Shown piece by piece: positions 28,947 through 54,552 of a stretch of 64,000 nucleotides of DNA; position 1 is the stretch's first letter; every line of letters starts with the position of its first letter. The position numbers and the translations under genes were made by a program. The notes under the pieces are model-generated. The model did no database searches and was not told where the DNA came from. It was given only the letters and a program-made list of their open reading frames with translations. The DNA is from Bradymonadia bacterium. Its GTDB lineage: Bacteria; Myxococcota_A; Bradymonadia; UBA7976; UBA1532. The stretch lies in the NCBI GenBank assembly GCA_046290225.1, contig JBKAGE010000082.1, forward strand, positions 64,001 through 128,000, in the 5' to 3' direction.

Positions 28947-29321
28947 TCAGGTCAAATACTCGTCGGGCACCGGCAGCCCCTGACTGCGGAAGAAGGTCAG
29001 CTGGTCGAAGTAGCCACGCTGAAACACGATCAGGCCCTCGCGCACCTGGAAGAACCCGCACCCACGCAGCCCCTGAGGATCCCGCCACTCCATGATGGCC
29101 CACTCGCCGTCTTCGAAGAGATTCTCCACGATGCAGGTCATCTCGGCTCGCCCCATCTCGATCTCGAAGAGCCGCTGAATCGCCTCGCGGCCCACGAGGG
29201 GCTCGGTGACCACCTGATGGTTGATCGCCTCTTCGGCATACAAGGCTGACAGCCCATCTACATCGCCGGCGTTGAACCGAGCCACCCACGTTTGCACCAC
29301 CTGCTTCGGACTCATCGTCAT
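28947..29321 (-). CDS. SnoaL/NTF2-like protein
   Basis: WVARFNAGDVDGLSALYAEEA..GREAI..GLIVFQRGYFD; ATGA overlap with upstream gene. Confidence 0.85.
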   Translation of the reverse strand: MTMSPKQVVQTWVARFNAGDVDGLSALYAEEAINHQVVTEPLVGREAIQRLFEIEMGRAEMTCIVENLFEDGEWAIMEWRDPQGLRGCGFFQVREGLIVFQRGYFDQLTFFRSQGLPVPDEYLT

Positions 29322-30250
29322 GACACATCTCCCACGGACCACGCCCACCCCTCGGCGAGCATATCGAGTCGTTGATACTGCCGGCGTCGCTTCAACGACT
29401 TGAGCACGCGATAGAACAGGTTGCGCTTCTTGCGCACCGAGACCTTCAAATCAGGCTGTACCGCCAGCGCAGGGTCGAGACCATCATCTCGAAGGCCCAA
29501 CAGATCCACCGCGTGAAACTCCAGCGTCAGGTGCTCGGGCCCACCCACATCAGCGGCGGCCACCACGGCATCGCTCATGCGCCCCATCGCCGTAAACGCC
29601 GTACCGATGAGGGGCACCCCGCCAAAAACGCTGATGGGGCATTGCACCAACCCACCCACCCCACGCCGGTGGGGCTCTTCGGGGTGCATCACATAGGGCA
29701 CCCGAGGCGACAGCAGCACCTTGGGATCACCCAACACGCTCCGGCTCCGGCGACCCCTCAGCGCCATCAGACCCATCACCGCGGCCTTGGCAGAGTAATA
29801 AGGCACACAGGGAAACACGCTCGAATCATAGCGGTGCCCCGTAGCACGCACGTCGAGGGCCAGCTCGGGCGTCGTGTTGTACCCCGGCGAGCGAAAACCC
29901 GTCACCAGCACCCCGGCAGCCTCTTCGAGACGCCTGCGCCCTTCAGCGACCTCAGCCTTGCGGGTCTCGGCATCAAGGCGGGTCAGATCATACGGATGAC
30001 GCCAGGAGTGGTTCCCAATCTCATGACCTGCGGCCACCATGGCCTGCAGCCACTGCCGGTTCTCCTCGAGGTCGAGATCTTCCGCGACGCAGTAAAACGT
30101 CGCAGGCACCCCCAACTCGGCGAAGAGCTCCAGGAATCGGGGCACACCGACGGTCCAAGCGGCGTTGGAGGCCGAGGCGTCATCGAGACCATGGATGCGG
30201 TAATAGTGGTGCAGGCTGTCGACGTCGACGCCGACGCTTACGGTTTTCAT
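29318..30250 (-). CDS. polysaccharide deacetylase (NodB-like)
   Basis: VDVD, ATFY, GHEIGNHSWRH, GFRSPGY, YDSSVFP; AGGAG RBS before ATG 30250. Confidence 0.88.
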   Translation of the reverse strand: MKTVSVGVDVDSLHHYYRIHGLDDASASNAAWTVGVPRFLELFAELGVPATFYCVAEDLDLEENRQWLQAMVAAGHEIGNHSWRHPYDLTRLDAETRKAEVAEGRRRLEEAAGVLVTGFRSPGYNTTPELALDVRATGHRYDSSVFPCVPYYSAKAAVMGLMALRGRRSRSVLGDPKVLLSPRVPYVMHPEEPHRRGVGGLVQCPISVFGGVPLIGTAFTAMGRMSDAVVAAADVGGPEHLTLEFHAVDLLGLRDDGLDPALAVQPDLKVSVRKKRNLFYRVLKSLKRRRQYQRLDMLAEGWAWSVGDVS

Positions 30251-30274
30251 GGGGTGAAACTCTCCTGATTGGAA

Positions 30275-30586
30275 AGAGAGTTTTCGGGCACGGGCACGGG
30301 CACGGGCACGGGCACGAGTTGATTCGCATGTTGACCCGTGGCCCTGCATGACTCCGCTCGTGGGTCTTTGACGATGGATGCTCTACTCGGCCCCAGCAAC
30401 TTTCCAGACGGCTTGGGCCTCCATACGTCCCAAGACCTGAGAGTTCAGGTCACTCTGGAACGCATTCAGCCTCAGTCGCAGCCTTCGTCCTGAGTCATGT
30501 ATGGCCACGGGTCAACATGCGAATCAACTCGTGCCCGTGCCCGTGCTCGTGCCCGTGCCCGAAGACTCTCTCGCGAGCGAAGCGAG
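30275..30586. mobile_element. non-coding inverted-repeat element, copy 1 (MITE/REPIN-like or structured RNA)
   Basis: Arms 30275-30343 and 30503-30571 are reverse complements (2 mismatches), each with five GGGCAC/GTGCCC units; followed by GCGAGCGAAGCGAG; homologous to 54190-54519. Confidence 0.75.
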
Positions 30587-30608: not shown

Positions 30609-31403
30609 TCACTTCAAATCGCGACCGAGGCGAATGATCATGGTCAACCGCACCATGTTCCGCAGCACATTGGGCACCCGACGGAACAGGTGCACCGAGG
30701 GGGGCCGCTTCTCCATGAGCCGCACCGGGATCTCCACCCAGCGACGCTCTGCCCGATGGGTACGCACCACGAACTCGCTGGCGAACATGTCTTTGTCGAC
30801 GACACAGGCATCGACGATGTCGAGCAGGTCTTCCCGACGGAACGCCTTGAGGCCGTGAGTGTCGGTGCCCTTGAAGCCCACCGAGACCCGGAGCATGCCG
30901 TTGAGCACCTGGGTGGCCGCTCGGCGGTACATCGGACGCTGATCAGAAGAGCCCTTCACCCGCTTGCTGCCCACCACCAGCTGGAAGCCCTCGTCTTTGA
31001 TCTTCCCCAGGGCCCGCTCGTAGAAGTCGACGTCACACAGGTCGATCTCGTCACAGATGACGATCTCACCCCGGGCCTGTTGGATGCCCTCCTTGAGGGC
31101 CTTGCCGTAGTTGGGCTCGCCGATGGAGAGCACCCGCACCTGCGGGTGGCGCTCAGCGTAGTCTTCGGCGATGGGCACCGTCTGATCGACGCTGCCGTTC
31201 TCCGCCACGATGATCTCGAAGGTGAAGTCCACCCCGGAGAGCTTGTCGAGCAGATCGGAGAGCGAGGCCGAGATGATGCCCTCTTCGTTGTAGACCGGGA
31301 TCACGATGGAGACGTCGGGGCGCAGCCGATCGGGATCAATCTCGAGGATGTTGTCGGGATCGTGGGTGCCGGTCATGGAGGCGTTGCCTTTGTGCGAAGA
31401 CAT
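30609..31403 (-). CDS. glycosyltransferase family 2 (DPM-synthase-like)
   Basis: VSIVIPVYNEE, ENGSVDQT, NYGKALKEG, VVGSKR, DTHGLKAFRR. Confidence 0.9.
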   Translation of the reverse strand: MSSHKGNASMTGTHDPDNILEIDPDRLRPDVSIVIPVYNEEGIISASLSDLLDKLSGVDFTFEIIVAENGSVDQTVPIAEDYAERHPQVRVLSIGEPNYGKALKEGIQQARGEIVICDEIDLCDVDFYERALGKIKDEGFQLVVGSKRVKGSSDQRPMYRRAATQVLNGMLRVSVGFKGTDTHGLKAFRREDLLDIVDACVVDKDMFASEFVVRTHRAERRWVEIPVRLMEKRPPSVHLFRRVPNVLRNMVRLTMIIRLGRDLK

Positions 31404-45964: not shown

Positions 45965-48880
45965 TCAGCGGCGACGACGCAGAGGCGCGGCGAGGAGGAT
46001 CAACGCGAGCCAGCCGAGGCTGCTGCGGCTGCCGGTGGAGGCGTCGCAGTTGCAACCGCCATCTTCAGGCGGCACGCCATCGCCACCGTCAGGGCCACCG
46101 TCCGGAGGCGGAGGCGTACCCCCCGTGCCGCCGGTCCCGCCGGCACCACCAGAGCCGCCCATGCCACCGGCGCCGCCCATACCGCCAGTGCCACCGGTGC
46201 CGCCCATGCCGACGCCACCTTCGCCGCCGGCACCGCCCATGCCACCAGCACCGCCTTCGCCACCACCAATCCATTCGCCGATGCACTGGGCTGCACCATC
46301 TTGGATCTCGCAGACGGCGCCAGGGGGACACACGATGTTGAAGCACGGATCATCCACGCACACCCCACCCTCGCAGCGGAGGCCATCGCCACAATCCACC
46401 TGATCGCAGCGGTTGGGTGCGCACTCGCCTTCTTCGCAGATCTGACCATCGGGGCATTCGACGTCGGCACACGGATGCGCCACGCACACCCCGTCACGAC
46501 ACTGTTCCCCTGAAGGGCACGCCACAAAGGTGCAGGCGCCCACACAGGCGCCGTCACGGCAGAACTCATCGCCCTCGCAAATGACCCCGTCACAGGGATC
46601 CGGCTCACACACCGCCATCACACAGCGCTGACCTGTGGGGCAGCCTGCCTCGTAGCAGTTGTCGGCGACACACTCGCCCTCGGCGCACACCTGACCGCCA
46701 GGGCAGTTCACGTCATCACACGGATCGACACAGTCACCACCGCGGCAAATGAAGCCCTCTTCACAGGGGTTGAGCTCGCAGAGCTGCACACAGACACCGT
46801 CGCTGCAGACAAAGCCTTCACCGGGGCACTCGTTGTTGATGCACGGGTCGGCGCAGCGGCCGGCAACGCAGGCACCTTCGGGGCACTCCGCCCCTTCATC
46901 CGCGGTGCCGTCGCAGTCTTCGTCCACGCCATCACAGGTCTCGGTGGGCACATCACCACAACGACCGCAGGCGTTGCGCAGATCGTTGTCGATGATCCCG
47001 TCGCAGTTGTCGTCGTTGCCGTTGCACATCTCCTCGGCGGGATCTTCCGTGGGATCACAGTTCAGAGCGCCGCCCTCGCAGACGAGCACGCCGCTGGCGC
47101 ACAGACCAGGCTGGCCCGTGGGGCAAGCATCACCGACCCCGGGGACCCCTTCGTCGACGTTGCCGTCACAGTCATTGTCGAGGCCGTCACAGATCTCGTC
47201 GCTCGCGGTGATCTCGGGGTTGCAGAAGATGCCCCCGCCCTCGCAGACGGTGGTGCCCTGACCACAGACGCCGGGCTGCTCGGTGTCGCACGCCTCGCCG
47301 AGGCCGGGGATGCCCTCGTCGGTGGCACCGTCACAGTCGTTGTCGATGCCGTCGCACATCTCGTCGATGGGATCATTGAGCCCCTGACACTCGATCTGGC
47401 CATCGACGCAGGCGGTCACCCCTTGAGAGCAGAAGCCGGGCTGACCGAAGTCACAGGCCTGATCTCCGCCGGGGTTGCCTTCGTCGACGGTGCCATCGCA
47501 GTCGTCGTCCTCGCCGTTACAGCGCTCGTCGCCGCTGGGAATGCAGGCACAGACATCACCTGTGCCATCTTCATCTTCGTCGGCCTGATCGGCGTTGGGA
47601 TGATCGGGGCAGTTGTCGCAGGCATCGCCGACACCATCGCCGTCGCGATCAGCCTGGTCGAGGTTGGGGGTGTTGGGGCAGTTGTCTTCTTCGCACAGGT
47701 CGGGCCCGTTGCGTCGCTCGGCCCCATCGTCGTCGGCGTCGACGCAAGCGCCACCGAGGGAGCGCTGCAGCACGAGGGTGGAGAAGGCCACACAAGAGAT
47801 GCCGCCGTCAGTGCCTGCACCACCCCAGCAGGAGCGGTTGCCACCCGTGGGCCAGTTGCCGTTGCCTTCCTGACGCTCAGTGAGAGACCAGGCGATGTCA
47901 TAGTACCAGCCCGCTTCTTCTTCCGGGAAGCCGTCATTCGCCGGGTTCCGGGTGCCTCCGATGTCGTCCGCCTCGAGGCCGTTGAAGTTCGGATCAGCGT
48001 TCTCGCTCACCTCGAGGCCCTTCGCCACGGCCCACAGGTAATAGTAGTAGCTGTTGTTGCCCCAGTTGGCCTGAGGGGCGTTGATGTGGCCGTCGTAGCG
48101 CCAGTTGGCCCGGAGCCACTGCATGGCGCCCTGTACAGCGTTGTCGGCGAGGCCCCGGTTGCCCAGACGGGCCACCCAGAGGGCCGAGGCGGTCATACTG
48201 CTGCTGCAGCCCGCCCAACCGCTGGTGCGGTAGTTGTAGCAACCCCCACCGGCGGCATGGAACTGGATGGACTGCCCAGCGTCGTTGAGCATGTTCTGGG
48301 GCACCTGCACCACCGCCGAGGCGGAGGAGAGGCCCGCGAGGGCGAACTGGGTGGTGGAGAGATCGTTGTCGGCGCCAGGGCTGTTGTAGTTCCAGCCACC
48401 CTGGTTGTTCTGCTGACGCTGCAGGTTGGCCACCCCGTTGGTGAGGGCCTGCGTCACCGTGCGACGGGCGCCGACGTCGTCAGGGCCCCCTGTGGCGAGG
48501 TACAGGCCCATAGCCATCATGCTGGCCCCTGCCCGATACACCTGCGCCGTGCTGTTGGCGTTGAAATCGGCGCCGTTGCTCACGTCGATGACGTAGCGCA
48601 TAGCACGACGGACCAGCGCCTGATCGTCAGGCGACATGCCGTTGTAGCCCACGGGGGGGGCGTTGGGCAGCGGCGACTCGCGCTTCTCGAGGAAGCACAG
48701 CGCGGCGAGGCCCGTGGCTTCGCCGCCCATGTCGCCGTTGTTCTCTTGACCGCGCATGTACTGCAGCGCGCTCTCGATGGAGTCGTTCACCCGTTGCCGG
48801 AAGGGGCTCACCTGACCCCATGACACGCTGGGCAAAATCGCCATGGACAGAGCCAGGCCCAACAACTGAATACGCCGCAT
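45965..48880 (-). CDS. MYXO-CTERM surface protein A: prenyltransferase/terpene-cyclase-like alpha/alpha barrel, TSP3 repeats, 5 MopE-like repeats, Cys-rich stalk
   Basis: QW-like motifs QQNNQGGW and [17 protein letters not shown]; CxGxDxxCDG x5; [20 protein letters not shown] tail. Confidence 0.88.
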
Positions 48881-48963
48881 AGATCCCTCTCGATGCAACC
48901 AAGCAGAAGGACCATACCGAAAAACTACCTACGAATGCGATTGAGGCGTCTTCTTTGGCTGCC

Positions 48964-51507
48964 TCAGCCTCGACGACGACGCAACGGGAGCGCGATCAGA
49001 ATCATCGCCAGCCATCCCAGGTGGCTGTGACCCGAAGCGTCACAGCTGCAACCTCCCCGAGGAGGGACCGCGCTGTCGCCGCCGTCCACACCGAGATCAG
49101 GGGTGGGCTCGACGACATCAGCGTACCCCGCAGCACCGCCCCCCCCTCCTGTTGCGCCCATGCCACCCGCGGCATCGCCACCAGCACTCCCCATACCACC
49201 AGCGCCCCCTTCTGCAGGCCCACTGATCAGCTGGCCCATACATTGGGCTGTGCCCTCTTTCATTTCACAGACAGCGCCAGGGGGGCACACGATGTTGAAG
49301 CACGGATCATCAACGCACGCCCCATCCTCACAGCGAAAGCCAGCATCGCACTCCACCTGCTCACAGAGCGGGTCGACGCACTCACCCCCCTCGCACACCT
49401 GACCATCGACACACTCGACGCCAGTGCAGGGGTCAGCCACGCACGCTCCATCACGGCACACCTCCTCCGCCGGGCAAGCCACGGCGTTGCATGCGTCGAC
49501 ACACGCTCCGTCACGACAGAATGCGTTCGCTGCACACACGACGTCGGCACATGGATCAGTCTCACAGGTGGAGGCGACGCATCGTTGTCCCTCAGGGCAT
49601 CCCACGGCATAGCAATTGTCGTCGACACACTCGCCTCCGGAGCACACCTGACCGCCATCACACGTGACCTCAGCGCACAGATCGACACAGCCCTCCACCC
49701 GACATACGAAGCCCGCTTCACAGGGCTCCACCTCGCACAACAACCGGCACAGGCCGTCCATGCAAAGGAAGCCTTCACCGGGACACTCGTTGATCATGCA
49801 TGGCTCTGCGCAGCGACCGTCGACGCACACACCACTCGGACACTCAGCCCCCTCGTCGACGACACCATCACAGTCTTCGTCGGCGCCATCACAGGCCTCT
49901 GCGGGCGGCTCGCCACACTGGCCACAGGCGTTGCGCAGATCATTGTCGATGATCCCGTCGCAGTCATCGTCCAGACCGTTGCATGTTTCTTCCGTGGGGG
50001 CATCGTCCGGCCCACACACGAGCTCACCATCTTCGCAGGTGAGTATGCCCATGGCGCACAAACCTGGTTGTCCTGTAGCGCACATATCACCGAGGCCAGC
50101 GGCTTCTTCGTCAATGACACCATCACAGTCATCGTCCAGGCCGTTGCACAGCTCTTCCGATGGCGTGCAGGTGCAGGCATCACCGACACCATCAGCGTTT
50201 TCGTCGGCCTGATCGACGTTGGGATGATCGGGGCAGTTGTCGCAGGCGTCGCCGACGCCATCGCCGTCGCGATCAGCCTGGTCGAGGTTGGGTATATCGG
50301 GGCAATTGTCGCCTTCGCACAGGTTCGTCCCACTGCGGAACTCGGCGCCGTCGTTGTCGACATCGACGCAGGCACCGCCGAGGGAGCGCTGCAGCACGAG
50401 AGTGGAGAAAGCCACACAGGACATGCCCGCGTCTGTGCCCGCGGCACCCCAACAGGACCGGTTGCCGCCCGTGGGCCAGCTGCCGTTGTTGCCCTGACGC
50501 TCGGTGAGAGACCAAGCGATGTCGTAATACCAGCCCGCTTCTTCTGCCGGGAAACCATCGTCCGTGGGGCTCCGTGTACCCCCGATGTCGCCAGACTCCA
50601 CGCCATCGAAGGCTGGATCCGCGCTCTCCCCCACCTCAAGGCCTTTGGCCATGGCCCAGAGGTAGTAGTAGTAGCTGTCGTTGGCCCAGTCTTCGTCCAT
50701 GCTGGGGATGTGGCCGTCGTATCGCCAGTTGGCCTGCAACCACCGCATGATCCCCTGCACATCTGCCTCACCCACGTCGCGACTGCCCATCCGAGCCACC
50801 CAGAGGGCTGAGGCGGTCATGCTGCTGCTGCAGTCGGACCACCACGCCGCGGTGCGGTACCGGTAACAGCCGTTCTCTTCGTGGTGCAGCTCGATGGCCT
50901 GCCCGGCGGACTCGAGCATGGCTCGGGGGACCAGCACGGCCCTCGAGGCTGCCGACAGTCCCAGGAGCGCAAACTGAGTCGTGGAGAGATCGCTGTAGTC
51001 GCTGGGGGTGCTGTAGTTCCAACCATTCAGGGCGTTTTGCTGGCGCCTCAGGTTGGCCACGCCATTGACGAGGGCCTGCGTTACAGTGCGAGTGGCGCCG
51101 ACGTCATCAGGTCCTCCAGTGCCGAGATAGAGGCCCATGGCCATCATGCTCGCCCCAGCCCGGTACACCTGCGCCGTACCGTTCGCGCTGAAGTCGACGC
51201 CGTCGTCTACATCGATGACATACCGTATGGCGCGGCGGACCAGCGCCTGATCATCGGGGGACATGCCCCGATAGCCCACTGGGGGGGCCATCGGCTGTGC
51301 CGACCATCGCTTCTCGAGGAAGCACAGAGCCGCCAGCCCTGTCGCCTGGCCGCCGATGTTCCCACCGCTCTCTTGAACGCGCATGTACTGCAGCGCGCGC
51401 TCGATGGCGTCGTCCACACGCTGCTGAAACGGACTCACCTGACCCCAGGACACGCTGGGCATCACAGCCATGGACAACACGAGACCCAAAACACGCACAC
51501 ATCGCAT
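48964..51507 (-). CDS. MYXO-CTERM surface protein B, tandem paralogue of A (3 MopE-like repeats)
   Basis: Colinear with [22 protein letters not shown] tail. Confidence 0.85.
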
Positions 51508-51605
51508 CACACACCTTAAGCACATGTAAGACGATGTAAGTCTAGCGGCGTATTTTGAGTCCGTCGTTCAGGCGCCCGGAACATCGGGGCCTGCGAGGTA
51601 GGGCG

Positions 51606-54189: not shown

Positions 54190-54519
54190 CTCGCTTCGCT
54201 CGCAGATCAGTTTTCGGGCACGGGCACGGGCACGGGCACGGGCACGAGTTGATTCGGCCCTGGATTCATGGCCCTGGATGACTCTGCTCGCAGGCTCGTG
54301 GGGGTGGAGGCTGTACTCGGCCCTGCATGCTTCTCAGTACAGGTTTTGGTCCTCAATACGTTCCAATGACTGAACTCTCAGGGCGTTCTGAAGCGCATCA
54401 ACTCAGCCTCAATGATAACTGTCGCCCTGAGTCATGCCGGGCAACGGGTCAGAGTACGTATCAACTCGTGCCCGTGCCCGTGCCCGTGCCCGTGCCCGAA
54501 AACTGATCTGCGAGCGAAG
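54190..54519. mobile_element. non-coding inverted-repeat element, copy 2
   Basis: Perfect 60-bp inverted repeat 54194-54253 / 54460-54519 with five GGGCAC units per arm; interior aligns with copy 1. Confidence 0.75.
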
Positions 54520-54552
54520 GCGCCAGCCGCAGCGAGAGCCACGTGGATGGCC

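Follow-up and report, generated by a model that had tools for sequence, protein, structure and literature searches.

A family of hexamer-armed fold-back repeats in a Bradymonadia genome and its gene-bearing PF05635 relative

The hairpin between the glycosyltransferase and deacetylase genes

The window analysed here is a stretch of 64,000 nucleotides from a Bradymonadia bacterium (contig JBKAGE010000082.1, positions 64,001 to 128,000). Two co-oriented genes on its reverse strand, for a GT2 glycosyltransferase (PF00535) and a polysaccharide deacetylase (PF01522), flank the non-coding repeat under study, as the original prediction had placed it. The features of this locus, and the second copy in the window, are listed below.

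30275..30586, no strand: copy 1, the gene-less form of a hexamer-armed hairpin (repeat search, folding, empty orthologous site in 12 of 13 relatives)
30275..30285, + strand: left neck, AGAGAG with a T-run and C, without a mini-hairpin cap
30286..30315, + strand: left (GGGCAC)5 tract; in other copies an unassembled insertion sequence (IS) has inserted into this tract
30316..30354, + strand: left inner arm, with an allele private to copy 1 and present on both its arms
30355..30491, no strand: loop (core), non-coding, of conserved length, about 75% identical between copies, with no covarying structure
30492..30571, + strand: right arm, comprising inner arm, five-unit GTGCCC tract (30531-30560, one unit variant) and neck
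30572..30586, + strand: outer cap with the DNA mini-hairpin GCGAAGC (30577-30583) on the outward-reading strand
30609..31403, - strand: GT2 glycosyltransferase gene (PF00535), upstream neighbour, stop codon 23 nt from the cap
29318..30250, - strand: polysaccharide deacetylase gene (PF01522), downstream neighbour, abutting the GT2 stop in relatives
54190..54530, no strand: copy 2, capped at both ends, flanked by a DUF1552 gene and a response regulator gene

The 69-bp arms with two mismatches, as first read from the sequence, were confirmed. The left arm (30275-30343) pairs with the right arm (30503-30571) at 67 of 69 positions, both mismatches being G-T on the + strand, and the repeat search extended the stem to 80 nt at 95% identity (30275-30354 with 30492-30571). 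The folding z-scores of copy 1 were -19.6 (+ strand) and -16.8 (- strand), with none of 100 shuffled sequences equally stable, and the DNA folding energies of the two strands were nearly equal (-128.5 and -128.3). Within the extent first proposed, 30275-30586, the last 15 nt (30572-30586) are a separate mini-hairpin cap, and the left end of copy 1 is without one. Its left neck is preceded by a T and a purine run, like 36 of the 45 cap-less ends of the family. The loop is non-coding, most copies having stop codons in every one of the six frames, which agrees with the earlier view that it holds no credible ORF; moreover, no promoter- or terminator-like site was found in the core of copy 1. Copy 2, noted earlier, was also confirmed: it has the same orientation as copy 1 and aligns with it throughout, block by block, including the interior.

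Two other structures of the window were recorded. A short local inverted repeat (30253-30285) pairs the left neck of copy 1 with a neck-like sequence, which overlaps the ribosome-binding site of the deacetylase gene. Two large paralogous genes stand in tandem at 45965-51525; both contain 165-nt repeats rich in Asp and Cys, and blocks of them are 70-84% identical.

Genome-wide copies, insertion sites and ends

The host assembly (8.58 Mb, 64% GC, rated 99.4% complete, in fragmented contigs) holds 49 two-armed loci of the element, and not just the pair seen in the window. There are also 14 outer stubs truncated by an IS, and 35 arms occur singly. When the assembly was searched with a profile of the core alone, 53 matches were obtained, of which 45 were near full length, and a hexamer tract lies near all of them. 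The tracts are mostly of five units, the inner length is 220-225 nt in 31 of 36 simple copies, and the loop is about 150 nt long. A mean loop identity of 75% suggests that little present activity may be left in the family. Of the 135 arms whose neck is intact, 134 are outside predicted genes, the predictions coming from our own gene caller and codon model.

Several kinds of variants were observed. Some copies carry one to three units of a 100-bp tandem module inserted into an arm, arm alleles are shuffled between copies, and there are chimeras in which one element arm is joined to another repeat family. The 100-bp module itself contains a palindrome, is found at C72:82340-82545 of the host assembly with 35 further matches, and occurs in tandem as 1-4 copies within arms, in a BIME-like manner. 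A third repeat family with long inverted arms (e.g. C46:54976-55655 and C36:153145-154952) forms chimeras with single element arms. Single arms are also located beside tRNA-like sequences, in the surroundings of C35:240468 and C55:61195.

DNA searches of other genomes gave matches in 12 of 30, in the hexamer tract only, and the nine such loci inspected were coding or unrelated repeats. The end pattern of the element was present in 1 of 113 genomes of the class, and it had no match in the JGI metagenomes.

The context of 48 complete copies was examined; 10 are at contig edges and 38 could be scored. The scorable copies occupy 17 convergent, 18 tandem and 3 divergent gaps; whereas all gaps of the assembly (n=5919) comprise 979 convergent (16.5%), 3956 tandem and 984 divergent ones, so that convergent gaps are in excess (p=4e-5). 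Relative to transcription, 12 copies have the same orientation and 6 the opposite. The T before a purine run at 36 of 45 cap-less ends compares with a background of 38% (p=1e-8). Where cap-less ends face the 3' end of a gene, 12 of 20 are at most 16 nt from the stop, that is, with the stop in or at the neck.

Empty orthologous sites, which the original prediction recommended looking for, were found. The GT2 and deacetylase orthologs are adjacent in 13 family-level relatives of the host, and the gap between them, 361 nt with copy 1, is only 2-64 nt in 12 of the 13, which indicates that copy 1 is an insertion. In genome G107 (L121) the same junction carries an unrelated repeat-like insert of 274 nt; one site has therefore been used independently. 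The lack of a target-site duplication noted earlier was borne out over 38 copies, since the mean longest direct repeat was 5.5 nt against 5.3 nt in shuffled sequences (17 of 200 shuffles were as high). Two sequencing runs, X1 and X2, provided low-depth contigs; X1 represents a close relative and contains part of the gene at C72 described below. No clean excision joint was found in the X1 and X2 contigs, none of which bridges either site, and the joints listed are short-sided and accounted for by other copies.

It is thus well supported that copy 1 is one of many non-coding fold-back repeats distributed over the genome, inserted between genes. The proposal of an undescribed non-autonomous mobile element agrees with the many copies, the empty orthologous site and the arms shared with a gene-bearing copy described below. 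The element is absent from Rfam; a literature search, mostly of openly accessible main texts, found no description of the element or of repeat-armed PF05635 cassettes with gene-less copies.

Gene-bearing cassettes and insertion sequences in the arms

A longer, ORF-carrying version between the same arms, which had been suggested as a check, was found at C72:82283-83345. Here the cap, neck, tract and inner arm of the element surround a 117-aa PF05635/TIGR02436 gene, and the analogy once drawn with repeat-flanked four-helix-bundle cassettes is thereby upheld. The protein is related to XCC0516 of Xanthomonas (PDB 2gsc, E=9e-11). The host assembly holds just two PF05635 genes. The other one, on contig C77, sits in the 200-bp arms of a second repeat family with 40 paired copies, 34 of which have a conserved 141-nt core. 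A scan of the assembly for long inverted repeats revealed, as clear enclosed genes, only both PF05635 genes and two transposase-containing stretches. The second family (C77:107005-107859, L001, and about 40 loci) has mini-hairpin-rich arms, and its AAGAG-TTC-type neck is common to both families. The 5' end of the C77 gene may be frameshifted, as its profile match starts at position 16-21.

The loop of the element gave no match to a four-helix profile of 72 sequences. Its likeness to the leader of the C72 gene is weak (4 of 100 shuffles), and to the trailer there is none. The core of the second family likewise had no gene-remnant likeness to the C77 gene or to the four-helix profile. Since the cores have no detectable descent from the local gene, that gene may have been trapped as a passenger between arms that were already there.

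A survey of homologs covered 80 loci; after 20 of the 21 loci of one Chlamydiae MAG were dropped, 60 non-redundant loci remained. Inverted repeats flank 48 of these 60 PF05635 loci and 0 of 44 distal controls, and they are often GGGCAN-type hexamers. Mini-hairpins are barely enriched near the homologous genes (1.58 vs 1.23 per kb). At the 21 of 80 loci from the Chlamydiae MAG, the PF05635 gene is behind a DDE transposase fragment. The four-helix gene has been amplified at least 21-fold in this MAG (L029 and 20 further loci), and the inspected copies keep the downstream hexamer arm only. Five homolog genomes, selected for hexamer arrays, were also inspected. An uncultured member of the Myxococcales (G436) has 313 tract matches and the other four have 1-19, which suggests that large expansions are the exception. 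G436 contains a GGGCAC-armed PF05635 cassette and short paired gene-less GGGCAC copies with an unrelated core of their own; caps are lacking in 7 of its 8 gene-less copies, and four are present in the gene-bearing cassette.

The element is also a target for insertion sequences. In the host assembly, 24 contig ends stop in one unassembled multi-copy IS, 10 of them in one IS end and 14 in the other. Every one of the 24 junctions falls in the GGGCAC tract of the element and has the same orientation; GG is present at either junction, and the IS lacks a terminal inverted repeat. Run X1 has the same IS junctions. This IS is known from its ends alone, with 58-91 nt assembled per end (e.g. L155, C77:170222-170312, and L156, C47:1-82). 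Searches with the IS ends gave no match in the JGI metagenomes or in 400 other genomes of the phylum. The IS is possibly IS110/IS1111-like, judging from its junctions; the IS110 transposase PF02371 had no match in the host assembly, from which multi-copy ISs are missing. REP-like repeats are known IS targets (PMC1525189). The REP-targeting IS621, ISPpu9/10 and ISPa11 (PMC1525189, PMC11187229) use a fixed repeat position and orientation, as does the tract-targeting IS. Further similarities are the lack of a terminal inverted repeat and the shared GG at both junctions. Unlike the named elements, the tract-targeting IS has an unassembled body and acts as a parasite of the element, and any role as its mover is putative. 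A separate DDE IS of 1268 bp (PF01609), which has inverted repeats of its own and is accompanied by a 9-bp duplication, lies in the core of a copy on contig C50. It is the sole transposase inside element arms, and no autonomous IS shares the ends of the element.

Mode of spread and rival explanations

The element probably spread in a REPIN-like manner as folded single-stranded DNA, depending in trans on the four-helix cassette protein and on host repair and replication enzymes; we give this reading a rough probability of 0.55. Copy 1 is then probably a form of the PF05635 cassette that lacks the gene and is spread passively. The arms would fold back on single-stranded DNA during replication, so that one arm could be copied onto the other and the 5' flank would be left exposed to cytosine deamination. 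Recognition would depend on the arms and on loop length, and not on loop sequence. The four-helix protein would be the arm-binding partner, and cutting and joining would be done by a further enzyme. PF05635 itself has no known catalytic role (PMC4990558), and neither a Y1 HUH nor an IS110 transposase was found in the assembly, both of which count against this reading.

Comparison of the two arms is consistent with copying of this kind. Arm variants are alike within a copy far more often than expected, for the neck (21 of 37 vs 7.1 expected), the cap (11 of 23 vs 3.0) and the inner block (15 of 37 vs 2.4), each with p<1e-4. Some of this identity can be put down to the common descent of subfamilies. 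Two copies, copy 1 among them, have private alleles on both arms, and in some copies the complementarity extends up to 35 nt outward past the neck; from these we infer arm-to-arm copying in place.

The flanking composition was analysed at fourfold-degenerate sites of the genes beside the arms, with an amino-acid correction. The strand that leads into an arm is depleted in C and enriched in G over the last 100 nt: C drops from 0.50 to 0.15, G climbs from 0.33 to 0.58, and the values recover by about 600 nt. Genes running away from an arm have the mirror-image skew, and control gaps are flat. After correction, the region 40-150 nt 5' of the arm has C, G and T at 0.44, 1.68 and 1.54 of expectation. 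C-poor flanks were found in 68 of 72 cases, while control C was 0.97 of expectation in tandem gaps and 0.86 in convergent gaps, the latter being a mild form of the skew in repeat-free sequence. Single-stranded DNA is open to deamination of cytosine. The skew fits a polymerase that would stall at the folded template and leave the 5' flank single-stranded and deaminated; alternatively, it may reflect a target preference of the element. Both the skew and the homogenisation of the arms may also follow from any long palindrome, and not necessarily from the mode of spread. Copy 1 itself has no such halo of C loss, and its element-free relatives match the composition of its GT2 end. A separate region of the window, the 3' half of the deacetylase gene (29400-30000), has a fourfold C of 0.29 against 0.52 in relatives, and there is no repeat at its 3' end.

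The comparison with known systems begins with the REPINs (Bertels and Rainey 2011, PMC3116915). Like these, the element forms gene-less inverted doublets and long hairpins, which are intergenic, multi-copy and conserved at the ends; its spacer length is conserved above its sequence, the arms have compensatory changes, one gene-bearing locus exists per repeat family, and there are higher-order tandem modules. Site-specific ISs target both. Unlike REPINs of about 100 bp, the element is 300-500 bp long, and its arms consist of a hexamer array, a neck and a mini-hairpin cap. The enclosed gene is PF05635 and not the Y1 HUH transposase of the REPIN/RAYT system, and the host assembly gave no match to a Y1 HUH gene (PF01797). 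The likeness to REPINs first suggested therefore stands for the architecture and fails for the Y1 gene. The element is a mobile-type repeat of REPIN kind with an unexpected partner gene.

These observations bear directly on the best of the rival explanations, that of an orphan REPIN or MITE. The repeat would then owe its spread to a transposase, Y1 HUH or of another kind, that has since been lost or is missing from the assembly, and the four-helix gene would be mere cargo that came to lie between two arms. The architecture, fixed spacer, compensatory arm changes and intergenic sites all fit the REPIN description (PMC3116915), Y1 genes are present in G436, the core has no detectable derivation from the gene, and REP-like repeats are IS targets (PMC1525189). 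Moreover, multi-copy ISs are missing from the assembly, as the 24 contig ends in one IS illustrate, which makes the absence of an enzyme a soft result. However, PF01797 has no match in a genome rated nearly complete, and RAYTs, which are reportedly single-copy as a rule (PMC5581495), should assemble. The lack of a target-site duplication also argues against this explanation. Finally, inverted repeats enclose both local PF05635 genes and 48 of 60 homolog loci, a regularity that chance capture would not give. This explanation thus seems unlikely.

MITEs are short and non-coding, have terminal inverted repeats and many copies, and insert beside stop codons. The element resembles them in its terminal inverted repeats around a non-coding interior, its shortness, its copy number and its position next to stop codons. 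It differs in that there is no target-site duplication and no cognate IS with the same ends, and its ends are ragged and appear lengthened by arm-to-arm copying. An assignment to the bacterial MITEs (compare PMC3184786), once offered as an analogy, fails on the target-site duplication.

An explanation at the RNA level appears improbable. It would make the element a counterpart, in mRNAs, of the intervening sequences (IVSs) of 23S rRNA, with RNase III cutting the 80-bp stem and spread through an RNA step or recombination. According to PMC4990558, known PF05635 genes lie within stem-loop IVSs that RNase III excises, and short tandem repeats are present near the start. The ORF-bearing 23S rRNA IVSs (S23p, Coxiella) have the same protein family in a terminal stem and short tandem repeats beside the gene, a likeness that applies to the C72 copy only and not to copy 1. 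Unlike the rRNA IVSs, the element copies are between protein genes and dozens are gene-less; since no rRNA motifs were found in the assembly, additional copies within rRNA genes are conceivable. The 80-bp stem can fold on either strand, and two retron-type reverse transcriptase (RT) genes are present in the genome. Avd is a protein that we take to be a structural relative of PF05635. It is a pentamer and works with a reverse transcriptase (PMC6182149).

Several results argue against the RNA level. The copies occur in both orientations relative to transcription, and the flank skew tracks the element and not transcription. No covarying pairs were found in the loop on either strand. Wobble-type mismatches over 37 copies comprise 22 G-T (+ strand) and 16 A-C (- strand), with no strand bias; the G-T pattern of copy 1 is therefore not a family trait. 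The outward-reading strand of 90 of 135 arms ends in GC-GNA-GC or GC-GNNA-GC, against a background of 2%, with the loops GGA (39), GAA (27), GTCA (8), GCCA (8), GCA (7) and GACA (1); the cap is missing from the other 45 arms. Mini-hairpins of the form GC(GNA/GNNA)GC are far more stable in DNA than in RNA, and the same consensus occurs at the phage G4 and ssiA priming sites and in N4 promoters (PMC13037366). The caps are DNA-type triloops. An Rfam search of the window gave no match at the gathering score; the single sub-threshold match, mir-998 (E=0.45, 18.8 vs 52 bits), was taken as chance. Covariation restricted to the arms, no G-U strand bias and DNA-type caps together point to a REPIN-like element and not to the structured RNA family once considered.

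Retron-derived repeats were another analogy. Such repeats of Nannocystis, reportedly described by Lampson and Rice in 1997, are similar in being dispersed hairpins in a genome with retron-type RTs. The present element differs by the lack of any sequence match to the retron region: a search of 7.5 kb (C79:176.5-184 kb) with the element model gave no match (best E=0.95), and neither the analogy nor an RNA-level spread gains from it. Two convergent RT genes at C79:178175-181442 of the host assembly (L108, L109) are retron-like by sequence and context, each ends a similar large operon, and a fragment of the second repeat family lies between them.

It is very improbable that the element is a domesticated host feature, serving as a terminator, an mRNA stabiliser or a nucleoid-protein site, which recombination and gene conversion alone have spread. 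Enrichment behind stops and between convergent genes, shuffled arm alleles and chimeras with other repeat families would suit this explanation, but 1 of 113 class genomes has the end pattern, orthologous sites are empty, and copy 1 has no terminator-like site and splits a normally abutting gene pair.

The preferred reading, spread as folded single-stranded DNA with the help of the four-helix protein, can be extended, although the extension is tentative and rather doubtful at present. The four-helix 'IVS protein' might be the trans factor of a class of mobile DNA without a transposase, in which each gene maintains its own gene-less fold-back family as RAYTs do with REPINs, single-stranded hairpins are moved with host enzymes, and neighbouring genes are rewritten by a strand-specific mutational halo. 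Proteins of the PF05635/TIGR02436 family are common, and no function is known for them. In this genome, each of the two PF05635 genes is enclosed by the arms of its own repeat family, which numbers 40-50 gene-less copies, and this is the one-gene-one-family layout of RAYTs and REPINs. If true, the extension would account for a class of dispersed hexamer-armed palindromes and would mean that repeats can also spread transposase-free. As neighbouring genes lose C in a strand-specific way over several hundred bases, such repeats can locally bias protein-coding evolution. Moreover, the tract-specific IS may be an RNA-guided recombinase, and one whose target is known.
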